DNA from: a virus
Lineage: Duplodnaviria; Caudoviricetes
Virus record (IMG/VR): IMGVR_UViG_3300044557_000107
Location: 75,821-139,820 of that record
DNA length: 64,000 nt
Direction: 5' to 3' (one strand)
Shown here piece by piece: positions 3,252-48,011 of the stretch (positions are counted from its first letter, which is position 1; each line of letters begins with the position of its first letter). Made by a program: the position numbers and the translations under genes. Below the pieces are notes generated by a model. The model searched no databases. It was not told the DNA's origin and saw nothing but the letters and a program-made list of their open reading frames with translations.

Positions 3252-6200
3252 CTATGACTGTTGTGACCAGTTTACTGTATGATCACTTAAGCTACTTTTT
3301 AATTTGGTAGCAATCTTATTTCCGATAGTTGTTCCTGTTGCATTAGCATCATCAATATTACCATTAACATTGACTGTAATTGGAATATTTATCCCACCAG
3401 AGTTTCCTCCCGAGGTAACCCCTGTTTTCTGAGCGGCATAGGCGGCTAGCGCTTTAGAACGTCCACTAGAAGCGGCACTTCCACCAGTAGGAACCACAGT
3501 TTCTTCGGAGTTCTCTGATATCCATGAAAGCGTAGGCTTTTCAATAACATTACCCGTGGCATTAGCCGTGGGTGCTTTGGATCCTGTATTAATAGTCGTA
3601 TTTGCGCTATAGGATGATCCCGATTTGCTTGTGGTAGTCTTTGTTGTGGAAGACGAAGAACTAGAACTAGAACTTTGAGTAATTGCACTAGCATTACTTG
3701 CTTTACCAAAGAAACCGTTTTGGGCTCTAGCTTGTTCTAGCAGTTGGGCTGTTTGATCAAGGTTACGTTTTTCTTTATCTGTGGCCTTGACTTTCTTATT
3801 GTCGTTAATGGTACTTGCCCTACTAATTTCTTTTTTAAGACGACTTCCTGCTTTAGTAACACCATCAAAAGCTTTGGTACCACCAAAGTACCCGGCGATA
3901 CCTCCAATAAGCCCTCCAGCGGCTTCTCCAATCCCGGTCTCACCAAGTACAGGAATAGCCGCACCAATTCCAGCTCCTACTTCACCACCGGCAACTGCAC
4001 CACCCCAACCAGATGCATCACGAGCACCCGTCTTAACAGCTTTTCTTCTGGCCGTTCTTTTCGCGTTTGCTTGTGCTCTTTTTCTACTTTGGCCTTTATT
4101 CTCATTAGCAATTTCAGCAGATTCTTTTGTCGAAGTATAGGTTCCGTAGATATCCATAGCTGTGGTAGCTCCTGCAAGAAGCGCATTCCCTTTACCGCCT
4201 AAAAGTTTAGTCCCTTTTTCAAGAACGCTACCTGTCTTAGTCAGCACACTACCCGTTCGACCAGTCCGAAGCCAGCCACCTGCTTTGGTCCCATATTTTC
4301 CAATGGTTCTACTTAGTCTGGAATTAGTAACTCTTGAGGTAGCTCTATAAGCACGATCTCGGATTCCGCCAGACTTTCCTCCGCCACCACCTACAACAGT
4401 TGTTTTAGACGAAGTACCTTCGCCGGTTCCTCCAGTTTTATTACTAGTATTTTCTCTGGTTTTAGACGTTGTTTCCTTAGTCGCCGTAGTCTCATTATAA
4501 GAACTACTAGTCCCTGTTTTAATAGATTCTGCAATTTTAGCCTCAAGAATTGCTTTAACAATCTGTGCAGTTCCCAGTCCGGTTGCAGTTACGATAGAAG
4601 CTAATCCTGAAGGTAACTTGTTAACCGCAATACTAATACTATTAACATATTTACCAATGGTATTCTGCTCATTACTAATAGATTTCTCATATTGAGCAGT
4701 ACTTTGAAAGTTTGATGAATCTGTAGAGCTATTATAAGACTTAGAGTTTTGATTCTTCCTATTACTACCCGTTATATTGTTTTCTTTTTCCCATTTTTTA
4801 ATATCAGAAGACGTTAGGTCTCCCTTTTCAGTCATTTCTGCTAGGGACTTCGCGGCTTTAGGATCGGATACGAGTCCTAGTTTCTGGTAAGCAAGGGCGG
4901 CTGTAGATACATTTCCTCTGGAGTAATTTTTAACTATTCCAGATATATCTTGAATATTATTAGGGTTTGTAATACCTTCAGAAGCTTGGATCTCTGCTCT
5001 TAAGTATCCACTTTGTCCTTGAAACTTGGTAGGATTTGATTGAATTAAGGATCTTAAAAGAGTACTGTTACCCCCAGTACCCGCGGACTTGAAGGCACTA
5101 TTCATCTGATTAAGATTGTTTCCACCAGCAGTTCCTTTCCAAGAACTACCCCCGTTTTTAGCAAGGTATGTCTGAGTAGCAGATGCTGTTTTAATACCCG
5201 AGGTAGTTACCTTTTGAGTATCCGTTTGATTCTTAACAATTTGGGATAGGTACTTAACCTGTTCTTGTAAAAGCCCTTGCGTATTCGAGTTTTTAGCGCC
5301 CCCAATAGCTTGATTAACAATTGAGTTAACTTGACGGGAGTTAGTAGCCGCACCCCCAGAGATGGCTGTGTTCATAAGCTCATTATAGTTAGATATACCA
5401 AACCCAGAACTTCTAGCATTTTGCATAATAGTCTTTAAATAGGAACTTGATACATTAGGGTTAGAACCATAGTTAGCACCTTGGGCCAATTGCATATAGG
5501 CTAATGAATCGCTCATACCAAACCCGGTTGATCTTTGAGCACCAACATTAATGGCGCGATTACGTGCCGACTGTGCGCTTATTCCCGAGTTGTCTCCGAC
5601 TTGGAACGCTAAATCCGCGGTACGCATATTTAAGTTCTTTCCTTGAGAATACCGTCGAGTAAAGTTACCCGTAGTAGCCCCTAAAACGTTAGACGTAAAC
5701 GATACTGCACGAGATTGGAGAATATCTTGAAAAGACCCTCGTTTAGGGTCTACTGTAGGGTTCGCAGAGTTAACTGAAGCACTGGACTTTGATAAGTTTC
5801 CAGCGGCTTCATTAGTTGCTTGTGAAAGGCTATTCAATGACTTAATCAGCTTTGTTTCAGCATCTTCCTGAAGCTTTAATTTTGCAAGCTGGTTGTTATA
5901 TTCGCTTCCAGAAATATTTCCACTTGCAAAGTCTTGAGTAGCAATACTTCGTTGTTGCTGATACATATTTATATTTTCTTGAGAAGACTGCCGTTGTTGC
6001 TTGATCCAGTCTTGCTGTTGCTGAATCATTTTTGATCCGTCACGGCTATCTCTTGAGAATCTTTGACTATCAATATAAGACATATGCCCAGAGTCTACAG
6101 CCCTATTTGCACGTTCTCTTTGTCTAGTGCCTAAGTTGCTTACTTGACGTTGACGCATACGAATGTTTTCATGAGCTTCTCGGTGAGATATATCATCAGT

Positions 6201-22795: not shown

Positions 22796-23125
22796 ATGAT
22801 TAGGTGGTTTTGTGGTATGAATAAGGAGGACCTGCACGATAGCGCATCTAATGAAGTTTTGGAAGAAAGAATTAAAGAACTGTTTCACCAGTTAAACGAG
22901 CAAAAGGAAAAGTCAAATAGACTAGAAGAACGTTTAAGAGATTTAGAAATGGTTCGGGGGGCTCAACAGGATTTAAAAGAAAGAATTCAAAGAACCTCAA
23001 GGATGCTTCAAGAGCTCAAAGAGCAAACAGAAAATGAACGTAAAACAAAATGGTATGATCTTAAACAAATAGGGCTAGTAGTTGTTGGTGCTATTTTAAG
23101 TTATGTCTTTAGTAAATTAAATTAG
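22796..23125 (+). CDS. Coiled-coil protein with C-terminal TM (XhlA/holin-like)
   Basis: Heptad coiled coil followed by IGLVVVGAILSYVF. Confidence 0.5.
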   Translation: MIRWFCGMNKEDLHDSASNEVLEERIKELFHQLNEQKEKSNRLEERLRDLEMVRGAQQDLKERIQRTSRMLQELKEQTENERKTKWYDLKQIGLVVVGAILSYVFSKLN

Positions 23126-23134
23126 AAAGTGTGA

Positions 23135-23527
23135 GTGTTTATGTATTTGTTACCCGCAAATGGAAAAGAGAAAGTTATTGAAGTAAATCTTAGTGATGGA
23201 ACACAAGCATATGTTTATGGGAAATTATTAGGTAACCGTCTACAGGATCCACATGATATTGTTACAGGATCTAATAAAGGCTATGCTAATGGGTTCTATG
23301 TAAAGGCATTTAAAACGAATGCTCGTACAGGGGATCCTATTGAAATTAATACTATGCAGATTACGTCTTTTATAGTAACATCAGTGGATCTTCCAAATAA
23401 CATTGTCACTTATATTGCTACTATTCGCGATTATGATGCTAAAGTTTCTAAAGGAGAAACTCCTGAAGATACTGAGACAGCTTCTTATAATGAAGCAATT
23501 TCGTATATTAATACGTATTTTAACTAG
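23135..23527 (+). CDS. Hypothetical protein
   Basis: 130-aa ORF followed by terminator. Confidence 0.6.
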   Translation: MFMYLLPANGKEKVIEVNLSDGTQAYVYGKLLGNRLQDPHDIVTGSNKGYANGFYVKAFKTNARTGDPIEINTMQITSFIVTSVDLPNNIVTYIATIRDYDAKVSKGETPEDTETASYNEAISYINTYFN

Positions 23528-36008: not shown

Positions 36009-36080
36009 GAAACAATGTAGATAGAAGCTATGATTTAGTACCTGTTAAGCCTTGTGGGAGGTACTTAATGAGAGAAGTAT

Positions 36081-36155
36081 AAGAAAGGTCATTCAAACAA
36101 ATTGGGTGATCTTTCTTATTTTGGGTGTTGACACTGAGCTAAATTGTGCTATTAT
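36081..36155 (+). promoter_or_regulatory. Terminator plus sigma-A promoter cassette (paralog at 45035-45107)
   Basis: AAGAAAGGTCATTCAA..TTGGGTGATCTTTCTTATTTT then TTGACA...TATTAT. Confidence 0.7.
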
Positions 36156-36195
36156 AATAAATGTAAATAAATAAAAACGAAAGTAGGAATACAAA

Positions 36196-42192: not shown

Positions 42193-42501
42193 TTGAATTA
42201 CGTTAAATCAGTAGAAGCATGGGCTAAAATCCGAGGATTGGATAAGTCTAACAGTGACAAGCAAATGATTAAGCTCATGGAAGAGGTTGGAGAACTTGGA
42301 GAGGCGCATAATAAAGGATGGAAAGATAAGCAAATTGATAGTCTAGGCGATATCTTTGTAGTGCTTACAATTTATGCTTTACAGAATGGGTTGTCATTAG
42401 AAGACTGTATTGCAGAAGCTTACAATACAATTAAGGACCGTGAAGGAAAAATGGTAGATGGCGTATTTGTTAAGGACGAAGATTTAGTAGAGGATAACTA
42501 A
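42193..42501 (+). CDS. MazG-like nucleotide pyrophosphohydrolase
   Basis: KL.EEVGEL...DSLGD..V.L...AY..IKDR.GK..DG.FVK. Confidence 0.88.
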   Translation: MNYVKSVEAWAKIRGLDKSNSDKQMIKLMEEVGELGEAHNKGWKDKQIDSLGDIFVVLTIYALQNGLSLEDCIAEAYNTIKDREGKMVDGVFVKDEDLVEDN

Positions 42502-43103
42502 TGAATAATAGTGATAGCAAAGATAAATACCTTAGAAGCTTTACTTTTGTATCCCGTAATAAGGATAATAAGTCTCTATTAGAGCATAATATTGATTATA
42601 AACAGCGAAGTCATGGAATTGTGCTACACACAGATTACACTGGAATACTTCTCTGTGAGATACTTAACGAGAATTTTTGGGATAAAATAAAACCCTTATT
42701 TGATGAATTTGTACACCAAGGATTACCCGGAGAAGTATCTCGCTTGTACTGTGGTATCAATGTTATTGAAAAGTCTGTTGTTAAAAAGGATTTGCAACAC
42801 TATCTGCTAGACAATGATGATGTTGATTTAACTAATATGAATGCTTTAATCGCTCGGCTAGTAGAAAAGGGGCATCCTAAAGCAACTAAACACTGGTTGT
42901 TTGATATTGATACTACAGACCAAGATACTGTAATGGAATTTGCTGCTCAAGTTCCATCGCGCAGTCAATTGTTTAGAACATTGCATAACTATGCTGTTAT
43001 TAGCGAACATGGATTTGATACTCGTGAGATACTTAAAAGATTCCCTTGTGTAACTTTGAAGAAAAACAGCCCTGTATTTGTATTATCTGGAATAAATAGC
43101 TAG
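42501..43103 (+). CDS. Hypothetical phage protein
   Basis: SRNKDN...WLFDID...T.HNY...HGFDTR conserved-looking motifs. Confidence 0.6.
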   Translation: MNNSDSKDKYLRSFTFVSRNKDNKSLLEHNIDYKQRSHGIVLHTDYTGILLCEILNENFWDKIKPLFDEFVHQGLPGEVSRLYCGINVIEKSVVKKDLQHYLLDNDDVDLTNMNALIARLVEKGHPKATKHWLFDIDTTDQDTVMEFAAQVPSRSQLFRTLHNYAVISEHGFDTREILKRFPCVTLKKNSPVFVLSGINS

Positions 43104-43576: not shown

Positions 43577-44256
43577 TTTATATAATTGGATCTATTGGAG
43601 CCGGTAAAAGTAGTCTAACAGAACTCCTTGCAAAGGATTTAAACGTACCTTATTACTTGGAGTCGGTAGATAATGGACTTATCAAAGGAATGCTGAGAAA
43701 ATTCTATTCCGCGGGAAAGGAGAGCCGCTCACAAGTCTCTGCTATGTTGCAGGTAGCTTTTCTAACAGTACGCTATCAGCAGTTAAAGCAGGCAATTGCA
43801 GAACCAAATGCAGTTTTAGATTCTAATTTGTTATCCGATCATATCTTAGCTAGGAACCTATATGACCGAGGTGAAATGGATAAAGAAGCTTATAACGTGT
43901 ACCTTACGTTAAACCAAGAAATGCAGTCAAATGTTAATGGGAGTCCTTGGAATGGTTTTCCAGATCTTATCGTGTATATTGATATAGATCCTGAGCACGA
44001 GATTGAGATGATACAAAGTCGCAGTCGGGACATGGAAGACATTCGTAAGGACGCAGGACTTATTGATTATTATCGGTCAGTTAACGACGCGTATACTCGG
44101 TGGTACAATGGTTTCACACAGGCTCCAGTAATACGCATAGACCGTGAAAAGTACGATTTTGTAAATAATAAAGATGATCAGAAGCAAGTGCTTATAGATA
44201 TTAAGAACAAGCTGTATGAACTAGGAAAATTAGATAATAAGGAGATTTCAATTTAA
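43573..44256 (+). CDS. Deoxynucleoside kinase
   Basis: GSIGAGKSSL, L.KFY, LQ.AFL..R..Q, PDLIVYI. Confidence 0.88.
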   Translation: MIYIIGSIGAGKSSLTELLAKDLNVPYYLESVDNGLIKGMLRKFYSAGKESRSQVSAMLQVAFLTVRYQQLKQAIAEPNAVLDSNLLSDHILARNLYDRGEMDKEAYNVYLTLNQEMQSNVNGSPWNGFPDLIVYIDIDPEHEIEMIQSRSRDMEDIRKDAGLIDYYRSVNDAYTRWYNGFTQAPVIRIDREKYDFVNNKDDQKQVLIDIKNKLYELGKLDNKEISI

Positions 44257-45029
44257 TGGATAACACAAGTAAATTAGTAGATAACACAGGAAAATTCACA
44301 GGGAATTACTTTCAATGGCTAAAGGTACAGCTAACTGGCTGGGATAGTCTTCCATGGGCGCTATTTGGTTTTGCCTTAGGTATGCAGGGAATGAGTTTTG
44401 CGTTAAACCCAAGTACATGGATTAGTGTAGTATCACTAATTGCGACGTTATTTGGTAGTCTATGCACTTGTGCTATGATGGCCGCGGGGAAAGATCCTAT
44501 TACAGGAAAACGTGTAACCTCAAGAGCTATTAATGGAGCTTTAGGTGCAGTTTCCGTTATTGGGTTTGTAATTGTCAACGCTACTATGGGCCACTGGTGG
44601 AGCGTTCTTGATCAGCTAGTCTTCTTTGTACTGATTGACGTAGAACTCATGTTTACATGGCGCACATGGGGCCGTGGCAAGAATACTGAAATTAAGAAGC
44701 TATCTAATAAAGGATATGTCTATGCTACTGTAGCAATTCTTGTTGCTTGGCTAGTCTTGTACTTTGTGGGTATCCAACTAGGAGATCAGCAACCTATTTT
44801 TGACAGTCTCGTACTGGCTATGGGTGCCGTAGCGTCTTGGCTATGTTTCCGCCGGTATTCCTTAACTTACAAACTATGGCTACTTGCAGATGTCGCACAA
44901 ATTGCTTTATTCGTAGCTACTATGATCCAATCAGGTGTGACTGGTGCTTCAATGGCTCTGGCATTAAACTATGCGTTCTATTTGCTTACCAGTATTGGAG
45001 GCTTAGTAAACTGGAAGCCTACTAAATAA
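44256..45029 (+). CDS. PnuC-family transporter (probably deoxynucleoside-specific)
   Basis: Multi-TM, INGALG, D.QP.FDS, .W.....QI.LF; coupled to dNK. Confidence 0.75.
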   Translation: MDNTSKLVDNTGKFTGNYFQWLKVQLTGWDSLPWALFGFALGMQGMSFALNPSTWISVVSLIATLFGSLCTCAMMAAGKDPITGKRVTSRAINGALGAVSVIGFVIVNATMGHWWSVLDQLVFFVLIDVELMFTWRTWGRGKNTEIKKLSNKGYVYATVAILVAWLVLYFVGIQLGDQQPIFDSLVLAMGAVASWLCFRRYSLTYKLWLLADVAQIALFVATMIQSGVTGASMALALNYAFYLLTSIGGLVNWKPTK

Positions 45030-45034
45030 CACTA

Positions 45035-45110
45035 AAAGAAGTTACTCAAAATAAATTGGGTGACTTCTTTATTTTTGTGTTGACAACGAGTATCAGTGTG
45101 CTAGTATAAT
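45035..45110 (+). promoter_or_regulatory. Terminator plus sigma-A promoter for CRISPR-associated TnpB
   Basis: AAAGAAGTTACTCAA..TTGGGTGACTTCTTTT hairpin, TTGACA at 45080, TAGTATAAT; paralogous to 36081 cassette. Confidence 0.7.
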
Positions 45111-45138
45111 AAGTATACAAAGTAAAGGGGAAATAGAT

Positions 45139-46527
45139 ATGAAAGAAAAGTTAAACAAGGGGATTAAGGTCAGAATATTTCCTAATGAAGAGCAAGTGGG
45201 ACAAATTAGATTATCATTTATGTGGGCACGGAACTTTTATAACTATCTGGTTGAATACCAGAAAGACTACACCAAAGCTATCTGGATTATGCGAGATCGA
45301 GAAGGTGGATATAGAAAAGATAAGAATGGTAAAGTTATACTATTTGACAAGAAGGGTAATGAAAGTAAAACTGGTAAACCTCAGTTTAAGTATAAGGGAA
45401 ATGTATATCTAAGTAAGTTTGACTTGATGAAGTTAGCTTCACCTTATCGAAAGTTTCATAAAGATGCAGGTGCAAGTAAGGTGGACAGCCACGTTTATGA
45501 AATGACGGCCACTTCATTTTATCAAGCGATTCAAAATCAATATAATCCTAGAATGATTAATGCAAAAGCACCTAAGAAGCATAAATGGGTTACTTCATAT
45601 ACTAGTAGATACACACAAGCGTCTAAGTTTTCATCAACAAAGAAAAGTGGTTCTGTTCCAAGCATGTATAGTGTAACAAAACATTGGGTAAAGGTACCAA
45701 AGTTAGGCATGGTTAAATACTCTGGTTCACAATCATTGAAAAATATTAAGCCAAAGAACTTTACTATTACAGAGGATAAAACAGGTAAATTCTACATGAG
45801 TATTATTATTGAATATCATAAGGATATTAAATCTGTTAAGCCTGTAAAAGTAGTTGGGATTGACTTAGGGTTAGATACTCTAGCTATTACTAGTGAGGGT
45901 AAAAAATATAAGATTATTCCTTTCACTAAGAATCATGAAAGAACCCTAGCAATTAAGAGCAGAAAAGCAAGTAAGAGAAGATTATTCATGGAAACGGTTA
46001 TTGGATCTTCTAAGAATAAGGCAAAGCTGTTTCCACTTACTCAACATGATTTTCCTAGTGTTAATGAAGCATACAGGGGAAGAGCTTTAGTATATAAGCA
46101 CACTGCAAATCAACGAAATAACTATCTTCATGAAGTAAGTAGAAGCATTGTAGATTCTGCTGATGCAGTGGTTGTAGAAGACATTACCGCTAGTTTCATG
46201 ATGAAGGGTGGTAAAAGTAAGAAAACAGGTCGTAAGACTAAGAATAAGAGCGCCAAGAGTGCTAGTAATGCTAGTTGGAACAAGCTATTAGTATATCTAG
46301 AATACAAGTGTAAGGAAGATGGAAAACAGTTTATTAAAGTAAGCAAAAACTATACTAGTCAGATTTGCCATGATTGTGGTTATTTATATGAAAACTTGGG
46401 TGTACCAAATGGTGGTGACAATCGTTCTGTTCGTGAATGGGACTGCCCTAAATGTGGGAAACATCATGATCGTGACATTAATGCGGCTATCAATATTAAA
46501 AATAGAGGGTTAGAAGTTATTGATTAA
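45139..46527 (+). CDS. CRISPR-array-associated TnpB / miniature Cas12-like nuclease (RuvC intact)
   Basis: IKVRIFPNEEQ N-terminus, [32 protein letters not shown]; 462 aa with insertions; no IS ends seen. Confidence 0.85.
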   Translation: MKEKLNKGIKVRIFPNEEQVGQIRLSFMWARNFYNYLVEYQKDYTKAIWIMRDREGGYRKDKNGKVILFDKKGNESKTGKPQFKYKGNVYLSKFDLMKLASPYRKFHKDAGASKVDSHVYEMTATSFYQAIQNQYNPRMINAKAPKKHKWVTSYTSRYTQASKFSSTKKSGSVPSMYSVTKHWVKVPKLGMVKYSGSQSLKNIKPKNFTITEDKTGKFYMSIIIEYHKDIKSVKPVKVVGIDLGLDTLAITSEGKKYKIIPFTKNHERTLAIKSRKASKRRLFMETVIGSSKNKAKLFPLTQHDFPSVNEAYRGRALVYKHTANQRNNYLHEVSRSIVDSADAVVVEDITASFMMKGGKSKKTGRKTKNKSAKSASNASWNKLLVYLEYKCKEDGKQFIKVSKNYTSQICHDCGYLYENLGVPNGGDNRSVREWDCPKCGKHHDRDINAAINIKNRGLEVID

Positions 46528-46542
46528 TTTTAAAAATAAGTA

Positions 46543-46571
46543 TTGACATAAGGATTATTAAGAGGTATTAT
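46543..46571 (+). promoter_or_regulatory. Promoter for scaffold/array RNA
   Basis: TTGACA-17-TATTAT; shares AAAATAAGTATTGAC.TAAGGAT with promoter at 29906. Confidence 0.75.
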
Positions 46572-46577
46572 AATAGA

Positions 46578-46811
46578 TGTAAGTAAGTCATAAGGTTAAT
46601 CAAGCCTACTAAGAAGTGCAAGTCTTCTAATGACTATATGGGGTTTCTCAATCCTTGGTTAACTACGGGTTCCGTGAGCTATAGATGTTTTATAGACACT
46701 ACTCAGCATACCCTAAAAACATGATAGGTGTTAATCAAAGCTCAATTTATTGAGTGGGTAATAGCCTATTGAGACCTAGACATTTTAATAGTATAAGTAT
46801 ACTAAATAGGG
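46578..46811 (+). ncRNA. tracrRNA-like / split omega-RNA scaffold with anti-repeat
   Basis: Several hairpins; GGG-TTTCTCAA-TCC-TTGGTTAACTA echoes omega-RNA GGG..CCC-TTAGTAAATA; ACCTAGACATTTTAA (46774-88) is complementary to repeat AAAATGTACTAGGT. Confidence 0.65.
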
Positions 46812-46830
46812 TTTATTAGTCTTAATAACT

Positions 46831-47065
46831 CCCTAGTATGTACTCAAAATGTACTAGGTATGAGATAATTGTAACATAAATTTAATTTACTACTTACCCT
46901 AGTATGTACTCAAAATGTACTAGGTATGAGATGGGCGGTTCACTGGTGTTTATGTACAGTGACTCTAGTATGTACTTAAAATGTTACTAGGTACAAGACA
47001 TTATGTTTGATACGTATTTTAAGGCGTTCCCCTCGTATATATCCAAAATGTGCTAGGCATGAGGT
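46831..47065 (+). CRISPR. Mini CRISPR array: 4 repeats (36-37 nt), 3 spacers (30 nt)
   Basis: Repeat CCCTAGTATGTACTCAAAATGTACTAGGTATGAGAT at 46831 and 46897 (identical), degenerate at 46963 and 47030; unique 30-nt spacers 46867-96, 46933-62, 47000-29. Confidence 0.88.
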
Positions 47066-47100
47066 TTAAAATAAATAAATAATAAGAAAGCAGGAATATA

Positions 47101-47424
47101 ATGGCAATTAGACCAGAATACTATAAAGGCAAATCAGGACATGATATTTTCTGGGATATGGAAAATGGTAAGTACCCTGTGGAATGGGCAATCGGGTTCT
47201 GTGAGATCAACGCGGATAAATATGAAAGACGCCTGGGTAAGAAAACTAAGGATACTACGCTAGACGAGGCTAAGGCCCAGACTTACCGTGAAGAAGCTAG
47301 AAAACTCCGCGAAATTTTTGCAGACGTGCGTAACCGAGGTGTTATTGGTAGAATGTTGCATACGATAAAGATAACACTAGGGAAATTATTGGGAACACCT
47401 CGAAGAACACGAAGAAACAAGTAA
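47101..47424 (+). CDS. DUF3310-like phage protein
   Basis: RP.YY...GFC..N..KY..R.GKK....D..KA..Y. Confidence 0.7.
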   Translation: MAIRPEYYKGKSGHDIFWDMENGKYPVEWAIGFCEINADKYERRLGKKTKDTTLDEAKAQTYREEARKLREIFADVRNRGVIGRMLHTIKITLGKLLGTPRRTRRNK

Positions 47425-47456
47425 TGGAAAATTGAGTATAATAGGAAGAAGGATAC

Positions 47457-48011
47457 ATGTTGACAGCAAAGAAAAAGCAGAAGAATAAAGTAGTTACTAA
47501 GAAAATTACTTTAGAGGATCTGTACAAGGCAGGGTGGGGGAAGCACGTAGTAGAGAACTCTCCAGGACACAAAGTAGAAACTTGCCCGGTGTGCCAAAAG
47601 ATTATCAAGTTAGGGCACCAGCTAAACGCTCAGATGACCGCAGAAGAACGTGCAGAGCGCCCCAAGATTGAGCGTCGTAATGTTACTTTAGAAGAATATA
47701 AGACAATGAAAGAACTAATTAAAGATCGGTGGACACCTCGAGAGATTGCCGAGTGTTTAAATCGGTACCCAGAGACAATTAGACTATATCTACGTCAGAA
47801 GAATCTTCCAGTATACACCATTAAAAAGGCATATATTGTGACTAATGAAAAGACTAATAAGGTACATAAAGTATGTAGTTTAAAATCTGTAGGTTCTTTA
47901 ATTGGGCTTTCTCCTTCTCGATTAAGTACTTTAATTAATTTAGGAGACACTGAAGTTCATGGATATAAAATTGATATTGAAAAGTCTAGAGTTAAAGTAG
48001 GTGAGAAATAA
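47457..48011 (+). CDS. Putative DNA-binding protein (CxxC plus HTH motifs)
   Basis: CPVC; TPREIAECLNRYPETIR HTH-like; NUMOD1-like C-terminus. Confidence 0.55.
   Translation: MLTAKKKQKNKVVTKKITLEDLYKAGWGKHVVENSPGHKVETCPVCQKIIKLGHQLNAQMTAEERAERPKIERRNVTLEEYKTMKELIKDRWTPREIAECLNRYPETIRLYLRQKNLPVYTIKKAYIVTNEKTNKVHKVCSLKSVGSLIGLSPSRLSTLINLGDTEVHGYKIDIEKSRVKVGEK

Follow-up and report, generated by a model that had tools for sequence, protein, structure and literature searches.

Type V effectors have arisen repeatedly from TnpB, and 40 candidate type V-U branches (V-U6 to V-U45) lack adaptation genes and have short arrays downstream of the gene (Altae-Tran et al. 2023, PMC10691335; PMC12669027). 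One proposal is that such arrays come about when segments of the omega-RNA are duplicated serially (PMC10691335; PMC12669027). TranC effectors (Jin et al. 2025, as summarized in later papers) are about 300–600 aa long, with 32–38-nt repeats in arrays of 3–20 repeats (10.64898/2026.03.27.714800; 10.1101/2025.09.28.678669). Their guide RNA is ascribed to "functional RNA splitting" of the omega-RNA or reRNA (10.64898/2026.03.27.714800; PMC13565253). A phage-borne member, CauTranC9, has about 414 aa (10.64898/2026.03.27.714800), and some TranC members are encoded by Caudoviricetes. LaTranC is the solved TranC (PDB 9jfo/9jfq), and a phage-encoded miniature Cas12p, termed a "hacker", has 500–700 aa (10.1101/2025.01.20.633832). 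Here we analyze a locus of related design in a 64,000-nt stretch of viral DNA (the window; positions 75,821 to 139,820 of IMG/VR record IMGVR_UViG_3300044557_000107), where a TnpB-derived nuclease gene is followed by a predicted scaffold RNA and a short repeat-spacer array. With a probability of roughly three in four, the locus belongs to the TranC/type V-U kind and constitutes an RNA-guided DNA nuclease system resident in the phage, in which the omega-RNA appears to be split into a scaffold and a short array that would serve the TnpB-derived effector.

A preliminary description of the window, made from its letters, had put the locus forward as a candidate intermediate between TnpB and Cas12. 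The repeated origin of Cas12 from TnpB, on which it drew, is established (PMC10691335; PMC12669027). The novelty was overstated, since intermediates between TnpB and Cas12 that have short arrays and lack adaptation genes have already been described, including in phages.

Results

A repeat-spacer array that mirrors the end of its scaffold

The array consists of four repeats (R1 to R4) and three spacers (S1 to S3), listed in Table 1. The phage genome of 139,820 bp holds a single copy of the scaffold, and the repeat is found nowhere in it outside this one array. The preliminary description had counted four repeats of 36–37 nt around three unique spacers of 30 nt, with R1 identical to R2 and with R3 and R4 decayed distally; the coordinates and the comparison of the repeats agree with it on both points. 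S1, S2 and S3 are mutually unrelated, and this lack of similarity rules out duplication followed by drift.

Each repeat resembles the last 40 nt or so of the scaffold, with CCTAG, a hairpin, AGGTA and a tail following one another in both. The likeness is clearest in L007, the contig of a relative whose protein is 92% identical. There the terminal repeat-like unit of the scaffold (R0) reads CCTAGA, hairpin, TACTAGGTGTGAGAC, and the array repeat reads CCCTAG, hairpin, TACTAGGTGTGAGAC. The last letters of R0 in L007 are GGTGTGAGAC; a 30-nt spacer comes next, and then a full repeat. The R0 of the window has lost the TGAGA tail and is 14 nt shorter. An RNAduplex search for an anti-repeat is dominated by palindromic hairpins pairing with R0, and the assignments of R0 as repeat and as anti-repeat are inseparable by this method.

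Repeats and scaffold are also linked by a short complementarity. The loop of the first conserved scaffold hairpin has its complement in the 4–5 nt that stand just 5′ of each spacer. The loop/tail pair is TCTC(A)/(T)GAGA in the window, L007 and L009, CTTG/CAAG in L016, CCTT/AAGG in L011, CCG(T)/(A)CGG in the upstream set of L017, and GCAG/CTGC in the downstream set of L017 and in L014. Loop and tail thus co-vary across five lineages, and non-cognate pairs mostly have 1–2 nt of complementarity (3–4 nt with the long loop of L011). Most repeats have the partner 4-mer immediately behind AGGTA; in the distal, decayed copies, for instance R3 and R4 of the window, it is partly eroded. In ISDra2 TnpB and Cas12f, a pseudoknot joins the guide-adjacent end of the omega-RNA or of the CRISPR RNA (crRNA) repeat to a scaffold part that lies upstream. 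By analogy, the loop-tail pairing predicted here fits this guide-adjacent pseudoknot. An internal TTGAGAC at 46769–46775, restricted to the lineage of the window and L007, may be a competitor in cis or a relic of an older repeat tail.

A conserved predicted RNA between gene and array

Scaffold identity of the window to L007 is 90.6%, as against only 71% at the third codon positions of the gene. A consensus fold of the two contains 70 predicted pairs, among which 3 compensatory and 8 one-sided changes are found and none is broken. The folding z-score of the single sequence is -2.3. A scan of 44000–48000 against Rfam, with E values up to 1, gave no match. Core motifs of the scaffold are shared with L016, L011, L017 and L014, and they keep one order in all lineages: the first hairpin, C(C/G)(T/G)TGGTAA, GTTCCC(A/T)(A/G)AA, and ATAGGTA at the end. 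RNAalifold on seven scaffolds recovers only the first hairpin, the alignment being too divergent for the rest. By these comparisons the predicted scaffold RNA is conserved and structured.

The scaffold lies behind a promoter of its own. P2 begins 15 nt past the stop codon of the nuclease gene, is the best promoter-like site of the region and is kept in L007 and L009; P1 and P2 are the two best sigma-70-like sites in 44900–47300. A scan of the same interval finds no terminator between scaffold and array, nor between array and next gene. The preliminary description had likewise placed a second promoter 15 bp after the stop and about 250 nt of structured RNA behind it, and both are recovered here, the latter as a conserved scaffold with compensatory pairs.

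Relatives keep the repeats and change the spacers

Among 5.8 billion proteins, close relatives form only two clusters, P0001 (92% identity, 462 aa) and P0002 (73%, 453 aa), below which the matches fall to ordinary TnpBs of about 385 aa with 30–40% identity. L007, the P0001 contig, has 87% DNA identity to the window over 45033–46804, from the terminator through the scaffold, and its array comprises R0, a 30-nt spacer and one full 36-nt repeat before flanking DNA. In the P0002 contigs (L009), two repeats and a 30-nt spacer lie just upstream of the gene, and a promoter and the start of a scaffold lie downstream. Three repeats are found in L016 (P0122, 425 aa), and arrays are also present in the loci of the P0121 type (434 aa), namely L012 to L015 and L017, the last from a 108-kb IMG/VR contig.

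In these array-linked loci the repeats measure 35–37 nt and the spacers 28–31 nt (mostly 30), with a period of 65–66 nt, and every spacer is different. The linkage extends over seven distinct loci and three protein sublineages, and an array of 65–66-nt period stands beside every fetched close or distant relative of this lineage; such recurrence makes the pattern in the window more than chance. Among ordinary TnpB relatives, no array was found near the gene in 79 of 80 from IMG/VR, the exception being L017, nor, in a scan for periods of 55–75 nt, in 76 of 80 from metagenomes; this makes 155 of the 160 on virus and metagenome contigs. Period matches occur in 2 of 80 cellular relatives; the one looked at in detail, L258, has two repeats.

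A single branch sets the six array-linked proteins apart in trees (support 60 in FastTree; 87 by the Shimodaira–Hasegawa approximate likelihood-ratio test (SH-aLRT) under the IQ-TREE C20 mixture). Their neighbors are TnpBs of phages of lactic acid bacteria (LAB) and of insertion sequence (IS) elements of Lactobacillaceae.

The check set beforehand in the preliminary description, whether homologues keep the repeat and vary the spacers, is positive in L007, in the P0002 contigs and in the distant relatives. Identical inter-repeat sequences, or an array occurring independently of tnpB, had been named as findings that would speak against the proposal; the spacers differ, and the array follows the TnpB lineage.

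Several loci deserve mention on their own account. In L017, a scaffold and a five-repeat array lie on each side of one 434-aa gene (1975–2470 and 3805–4240), with different loop/tail pairs (CCGT/ACGG and GCAG/CTGC); the upstream set comes directly after tRNA-like sequences and has no gene of its own. In L011 (1466–2608), the nuclease is reduced to its C-terminal half from RuvC-I on, and the scaffold and a four-repeat array are retained. In L014, the TnpB-type array is directly preceded, at positions 1–150, by three 28-nt repeats of type I-E-like character that have a period of 61 and spacers of 33 nt, so that two kinds of mini-array occupy one locus. L162 and L168 have arrays beside the gene at other periods, 71–78 nt. 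In L162, an unrelated metagenomic TnpB relative is accompanied by four perfect 37-nt repeats with 36–41-nt spacers (2303–2565), and this is another independent link between TnpB and an array. L258 (2303–3883), from a Levilactobacillus chromosome, has a 444-aa TnpB-like gene and, about 145 nt downstream, a pair of 38-nt repeats spaced by 66 nt; the design may thus have a cellular relative, although the long branch of L258 makes its placement in the tree tentative.

The protein is a TnpB by sequence and predicted fold

The preliminary description had reported a 462-aa TnpB gene with three acidic RuvC residues and a zinc finger, and profiles and alignments agree. The predicted product matches Pfam HTH_OrfB_IS605 at residues 5–46 (24.5, cut-off 21), OrfB_IS605 at residues 222–355 (44.5, cut-off 30.5) and Cas12f1-like_TNB at residues 380–453 (86.6, cut-off 26.3), and it passes the NCBIfam guided_TnpB model with 224 bits against a cut-off of 100. 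The RuvC motifs GIDLG (D242), VVED (E347) and DRDINAA (D446) all lie in conserved columns. In an alignment of 76 sequences D242 is invariant, E347 and D446 are at least 90% conserved, and cysteines 410, 413, 436 and 439 of the zinc ribbon (CxxC...CxxC) are invariant. Judged by profiles, catalytic triad and zinc ribbon, the protein is a member of the TnpB family. Cas profiles score well below their cut-offs, with 82 bits for CRISPR_Cas12f2 of Cas12f (V-F) (cut-off 450) and 70 bits for c2c8 (cut-off 350).

Compared with TnpBs of about 385 aa, four insertions, at about 51–90, 161–180 and 351–380 and within the zinc ribbon, add about 77 residues in all. The first has about 37 aa and follows residue 55, the second has about 16 aa at 165–180, the third is a lysine-rich run of 11 aa after E347, and the zinc-ribbon insertion has 7 aa. 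The first and the last are partly common to P0121 or P0122. The ratio of nonsynonymous to synonymous substitution rates (dN/dS) is 0.055 against L007 and 0.051 against L009, dS being saturated in the latter case. The comparison with relatives indicates a nuclease gene that is intact and under strong purifying selection (dN/dS about 0.05).

The AlphaFold2 (AF2) model has a predicted local distance difference test score (pLDDT) of 88.8. Its nearest solved folds are ISFba1 and ISDra2 TnpB, with target-normalized template-modeling (TM) scores of 0.76–0.81, as compared with about 0.6 for Cas12f, 0.56 for LaTranC and 0.54 for Cas12p. Sequence matches in the PDB are ISDra2 TnpB with E 1e-26, LaTranC with E 1e-12 in the RuvC half only, and Cas12f chains with E 1e-4 to 1e-5. 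By sequence and modeled fold the protein is still a TnpB.

Near-matches of the spacers

No exact protospacer was found in phage records, plasmid records or IMG/VR, where exact 20-nt seeds gave one unrelated match for S1 and none for S2 or S3. The best outside match of S1 (26/30, the first 18 nt exact) is in the head maturation protease gene of Enterococcus myophages, at chance level (E 0.2); the phage's own head maturation protease differs at this site. The first 22 nt of S2 together with the 3 preceding repeat bases, 25 nt in all, are exact in a gene of Enterococcus raffinosus megaplasmids (E 0.01; 24/30 overall). S3 matches at 27/30, in frame, a small gene after parA near a small terminase gene in a Lactobacillaceae genome, with E 2.3e-5 per genome, or about 0.01 after correction for the 401 genomes searched. 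The three near-protospacers have no 5′ flank in common that could be a target-adjacent motif, and the arrays of L017 gave no credible match in the phage collection. A search of the spacers against Lactobacillaceae genomes, plasmids and phages had been suggested beforehand, and its yield is near-matches and no exact protospacer. The near-matches are no more than a hint that the spacers derive from mobile or accessory DNA of Lactobacillales.

Against the phage's own genome the spacers have no match, the best ungapped alignments being 19–21/30, and self-targeting was rejected on this ground. Partial self-matches of 11–16 nt, including the longest for S1 and S3 and one of the longest for S2, cluster at window positions 23110–23523, at the boundaries of the small genes 22796–23125 and 23135–23527; this clustering is probably chance in AT-rich DNA.

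Carrier, boundaries and neighbors

The carrier is a large phage of LAB. The complete virus record comprises 139,820 bp with direct terminal repeats, and the window is its right-hand 64 kb; a few genes of the window have 65–70% DNA identity to those of large Lactobacillus myophages (LP65, Lpa804, Bacchae). No match to the locus was found among 50,697 phage records by megablast or blastn, nor in IMG/VR, possibly without the window's own record, by peptide patterns of the single protein or by the repeat core, and a literature search returned nothing on such arrays in Lactobacillus-type phages. Neither Cas1 nor Cas2 is found in the complete 139.8-kb genome, no search having been aimed at Cas4; the lack of cas1 and cas2 noticed earlier in the window holds across the whole genome. 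The same genome has no Y1 TnpA transposase, no search having been aimed at a TnpA of the serine-recombinase type, and it has four further TnpB loci (L002 to L004 and L006), all without arrays.

The terminator hairpin marks the left limit of the stretch common to L007, where homology begins at 45033. P1 is conserved in L007 and in a paralogous cassette elsewhere in the window (36070–36190), the mean column identity being 77% over the three cassettes including that of L007. The terminator-promoter cassette is a reusable generic phage transcription signal. The preliminary description had seen a native phage cassette and no IS left end, and the paralogue at about 36070 confirms it. The left-end hairpin resembles the repeat at 15/19 nt and was considered as an IS left end; this was rejected in view of the generic cassette, its paralogue near 36070 and the T-run.

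The dNK and PnuC-like genes that adjoin the module in the window do so in L012 and L017 as well, despite protein identity of about 33%. In L007 it directly follows a homologue of window 42501–43103, and in the window three more genes lie between. Traits of an IS200/IS605 or IS607 element were not found: the genome has no Y1 TnpA and no multiple copies, and the left end is the generic cassette. The lack of Y1 TnpA, the generic left cassette and the conserved dNK and PnuC-like neighbors indicate a resident rather than a mobile module, and our reading is that it is long-resident and domesticated, with local shuffling.

Table 1. Features of the locus, numbered as in the window.
Feature	Position	Strand	Basis or remark
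Intrinsic terminator hairpin, end of upstream operon	45035..45070	+	only terminator-like site in 44900-47300
Promoter P1, nuclease gene	45080..45107	+	TTGACA, 16 nt, TAGTAT, TG extension; 10/12 consensus matches
TnpB-derived nuclease gene, 462 aa	45139..46527	+	Pfam/NCBIfam matches, alignments, dN/dS, AF2 model
Promoter P2, guide-RNA transcript	46543..46571	+	TTGACA, 17 nt, TATTAT overlapping TATAAT; 11/12 matches
Scaffold RNA, about 250 nt, omega-RNA-derived, tracrRNA-like (predicted)	46578..46830	+	conservation, consensus fold
First conserved hairpin, loop TCTCA at 46646-46650, then CCTTGGTTAAC motif	46640..46663	+	stem covariation across 7 scaffolds
R0, terminal CCTAGA-hairpin-tail unit of scaffold, repeat-like	46775..46812	+	alignment with L007
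Repeat R1, 36 nt; hairpin CCTAGTA...TACTAGG; tail TGAGA	46831..46866	+	
Spacer S1, 30 nt	46867..46896	+	unique in genome
Repeat R2, identical to R1	46897..46932	+	
Spacer S2, 30 nt	46933..46962	+	unique in genome
Repeat R3, 37 nt, partly decayed; tail CAAGA	46963..46999	+	
Spacer S3, 30 nt	47000..47029	+	
Repeat R4, 81% identical to R1; tail TGAGG	47030..47065	+	followed by ribosome-binding-site region of next gene, start 47101

Discussion

The proposed system would operate as follows. P2, a separate strong promoter, would drive the scaffold transcript. A repeat-spacer unit would then dock on the scaffold through the loop-tail pseudoknot, either in cis on a long transcript or in trans after processing, and docking would rebuild a complete omega-RNA with a different 3′ guide. 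With this guide, the RuvC of the protein would cut matching double-stranded DNA beside a target-adjacent motif. In L007 the intact R0 could carry its own guide, followed by one array unit; in the window the tail of R0 is lost, and therefore the guides must come from the array. The targets are likely to be non-self mobile DNA in the same hosts, that is, competing phages, phage-plasmids and plasmids. The preliminary description had proposed a domesticated multi-guide RNA nuclease, used by a lytic phage against competitors or the host. Selection, scaffold and covariation speak for the first part, while "against competitors or the host" and "lytic" go too far.

Several observations weigh against such a system. 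Transcription, processing and docking in trans are inferred from the DNA. The arrays are very short, and with no terminator past the array the P2 transcript may be just a long leader of the downstream genes. The internal TTGAGAC of the window and L007 scaffolds pairs with the same loop in the RNAalifold fold, which makes occupancy in cis possible. The spacers have no exact protospacer, and the three near-matches are each borderline and without a common 5′ flank. The L011 array beside a truncated gene indicates that decay occurs, and the placement of the array-linked proteins in a single clade rests on long branches (SH-aLRT 87).

Alternatively, the same machine could be a selfish device for homing or marker exclusion, its guides directed at allelic or neighboring sites of related co-infecting phages, and cleavage followed by recombination would spread the module with its flanks. 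Free-standing phage homing endonucleases and the TnpB-driven homing of IS elements are the analogues. Homing is the ancestral role of TnpB, the phage has several other TnpB loci, and plain flanking DNA comes after the last repeat, just as an omega-RNA takes its guide from the flank. The window and L007 have modules with 87% identity and flanks that differ, which suggests local gene conversion or shuffling, and the best near-match of S1 is a conserved structural gene of Herelleviridae-type phages. However, the best matches of S2 and S3, in a megaplasmid gene and a partition-locus gene, are not in relatives of the phage, and the fetched relatives and empty sites contain no match to any spacer. 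Long residence rather than frequent spread is also indicated by synteny that persists at about 33% protein identity. A homing or marker-exclusion device is rather unlikely.

A virus-borne mini-array could also work with a host Cas effector, for instance of type II-A, with the TnpB gene merely adjacent. Type II-A arrays have 36-nt repeats and 30-nt spacers, and the array has the same geometry. The type I-E-like array of L014 suggests that these phages may borrow arrays of host type, and the polarity of repeat decay suggests acquisition of the integrase type in a phage without Cas1 and Cas2. Nevertheless, the repeats resemble the 3′ end of the adjacent scaffold and their tails co-vary with its loop, the type of array follows the TnpB lineage over 33–92% identity, no array with this repeat is found in the 401 Lactobacillaceae genomes searched, in which the paired-repeat pattern has 1 match as against 5 for a reversed-pattern control, and the repeat core is not found in IMG/VR. 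Dependence on a host effector is very improbable on this evidence.

A decaying IS200/IS605-type remnant, with repeats from local duplication and no present function, would account for the degenerate R3, R4 and R0, the truncated gene of L011 and the missing targets, but it is hardly credible given a dN/dS of 0.05 with catalytic residues kept, a scaffold more conserved than synonymous sites and with compensatory changes, an R1 equal to R2 around unrelated S1 and S2, which duplication and drift cannot yield, and an architecture kept in deep relatives. An RNA-guided regulator like TldR or Cas12m, binding phage or host DNA without cutting and controlling transcription, would suit an array transcript that continues into downstream genes, yet it is equally implausible with the three RuvC catalytic residues and the zinc ribbon intact and conserved, no spacer matching the phage genome, and no convincing host match in the 401 Lactobacillaceae genomes beyond the partition-locus gene.

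For the RNA-guided nuclease system that we favor, a question is how polarized arrays persist in a virus without Cas1 and Cas2. The scaffold-proximal repeats are identical and the distal ones decayed in the window, in both sets of L017 (L017a and L017b) and in L016. Spacers differ even between loci whose proteins are 92% identical, and their length is held at about 30 nt. Renewal of spacers without Cas1–Cas2, by the TnpB-derived complex itself or by recombination functions of the phage, is a doubtful proposition, with the odds well against it. If true, the clade would show spacers being captured by a new route and, still in progress, a CRISPR array being born from the 3′ end of an omega-RNA.

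Our study would add a phage-only clade of very small (425–462 aa) array-guided nucleases, from LAB phages, to the intermediates between TnpB and Cas12. The footprints of array birth from an omega-RNA are unusually legible here, with R0 still present, its likeness to the repeats, and the co-varying pairing of tail and loop. This pairing gives a concrete, testable RNA design of scaffold plus repeat-spacer, and the nucleases are candidate compact editors. For phage biology, the locus suggests that phages and plasmids of lactobacilli from food and gut may engage in warfare or homing guided by RNA.

Among known systems, Cas12f (V-F), Cas12p, CasPhi/Cas12j and CasLambda are likewise miniature RuvC effectors with short arrays, some encoded by phages and thought to act against rival DNA. 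Cas12f and Cas12p use a trans-activating crRNA (tracrRNA), and the predicted scaffold here is tracr-like. However, the matches to the Cas12f2 and c2c8 profiles are far under their thresholds and the TM scores only 0.5–0.6, and in size the protein falls short of Cas12p and far short of Cas12j and CasLambda. Closest by sequence and fold are the TnpBs of IS200/IS605 elements (ISDra2, ISFba1; PDB 8exa, 8h1j, 8iaz), whose guide RNA also lies downstream with the guide at its 3′ end. The guide-adjacent RNA end pairs with an upstream part of the scaffold there as it is predicted to do here, a pseudoknot in the solved omega-RNAs. The present locus differs from them in that it is single-copy and lacks TnpA and IS ends, and in having some 77 additional residues in the protein, a scaffold that begins past the stop codon behind its own promoter, and several array guides instead of one derived from the flank.

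With the V-U6 to V-U45 branches the locus has in common a short downstream array on a TnpB branch, few spacer matches and modest growth of the protein; the V-U loci have no cas1, cas2 or cas4. It differs, in a comparison with these branches by their description, in its direct sequence footprints of the proposed origin, namely the likeness of R0 to the repeats and the co-varying tail. Similarly, TranC has an effector of TnpB size with an intact RuvC, a short array, no adaptation genes, and a guide split into scaffold and repeat, the last of these being predicted here. LaTranC is distant (E 1e-12, TM 0.56) in comparison with ISDra2 TnpB (E 1e-26, TM about 0.8), the named TranC clades being compared by description only. 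Unlike TranC, the scaffold here keeps its own terminal repeat-like unit, which is intact with a guide in L007 and decayed in the window, and the relatives of this locus have scaffold-plus-array units on both sides of the gene.

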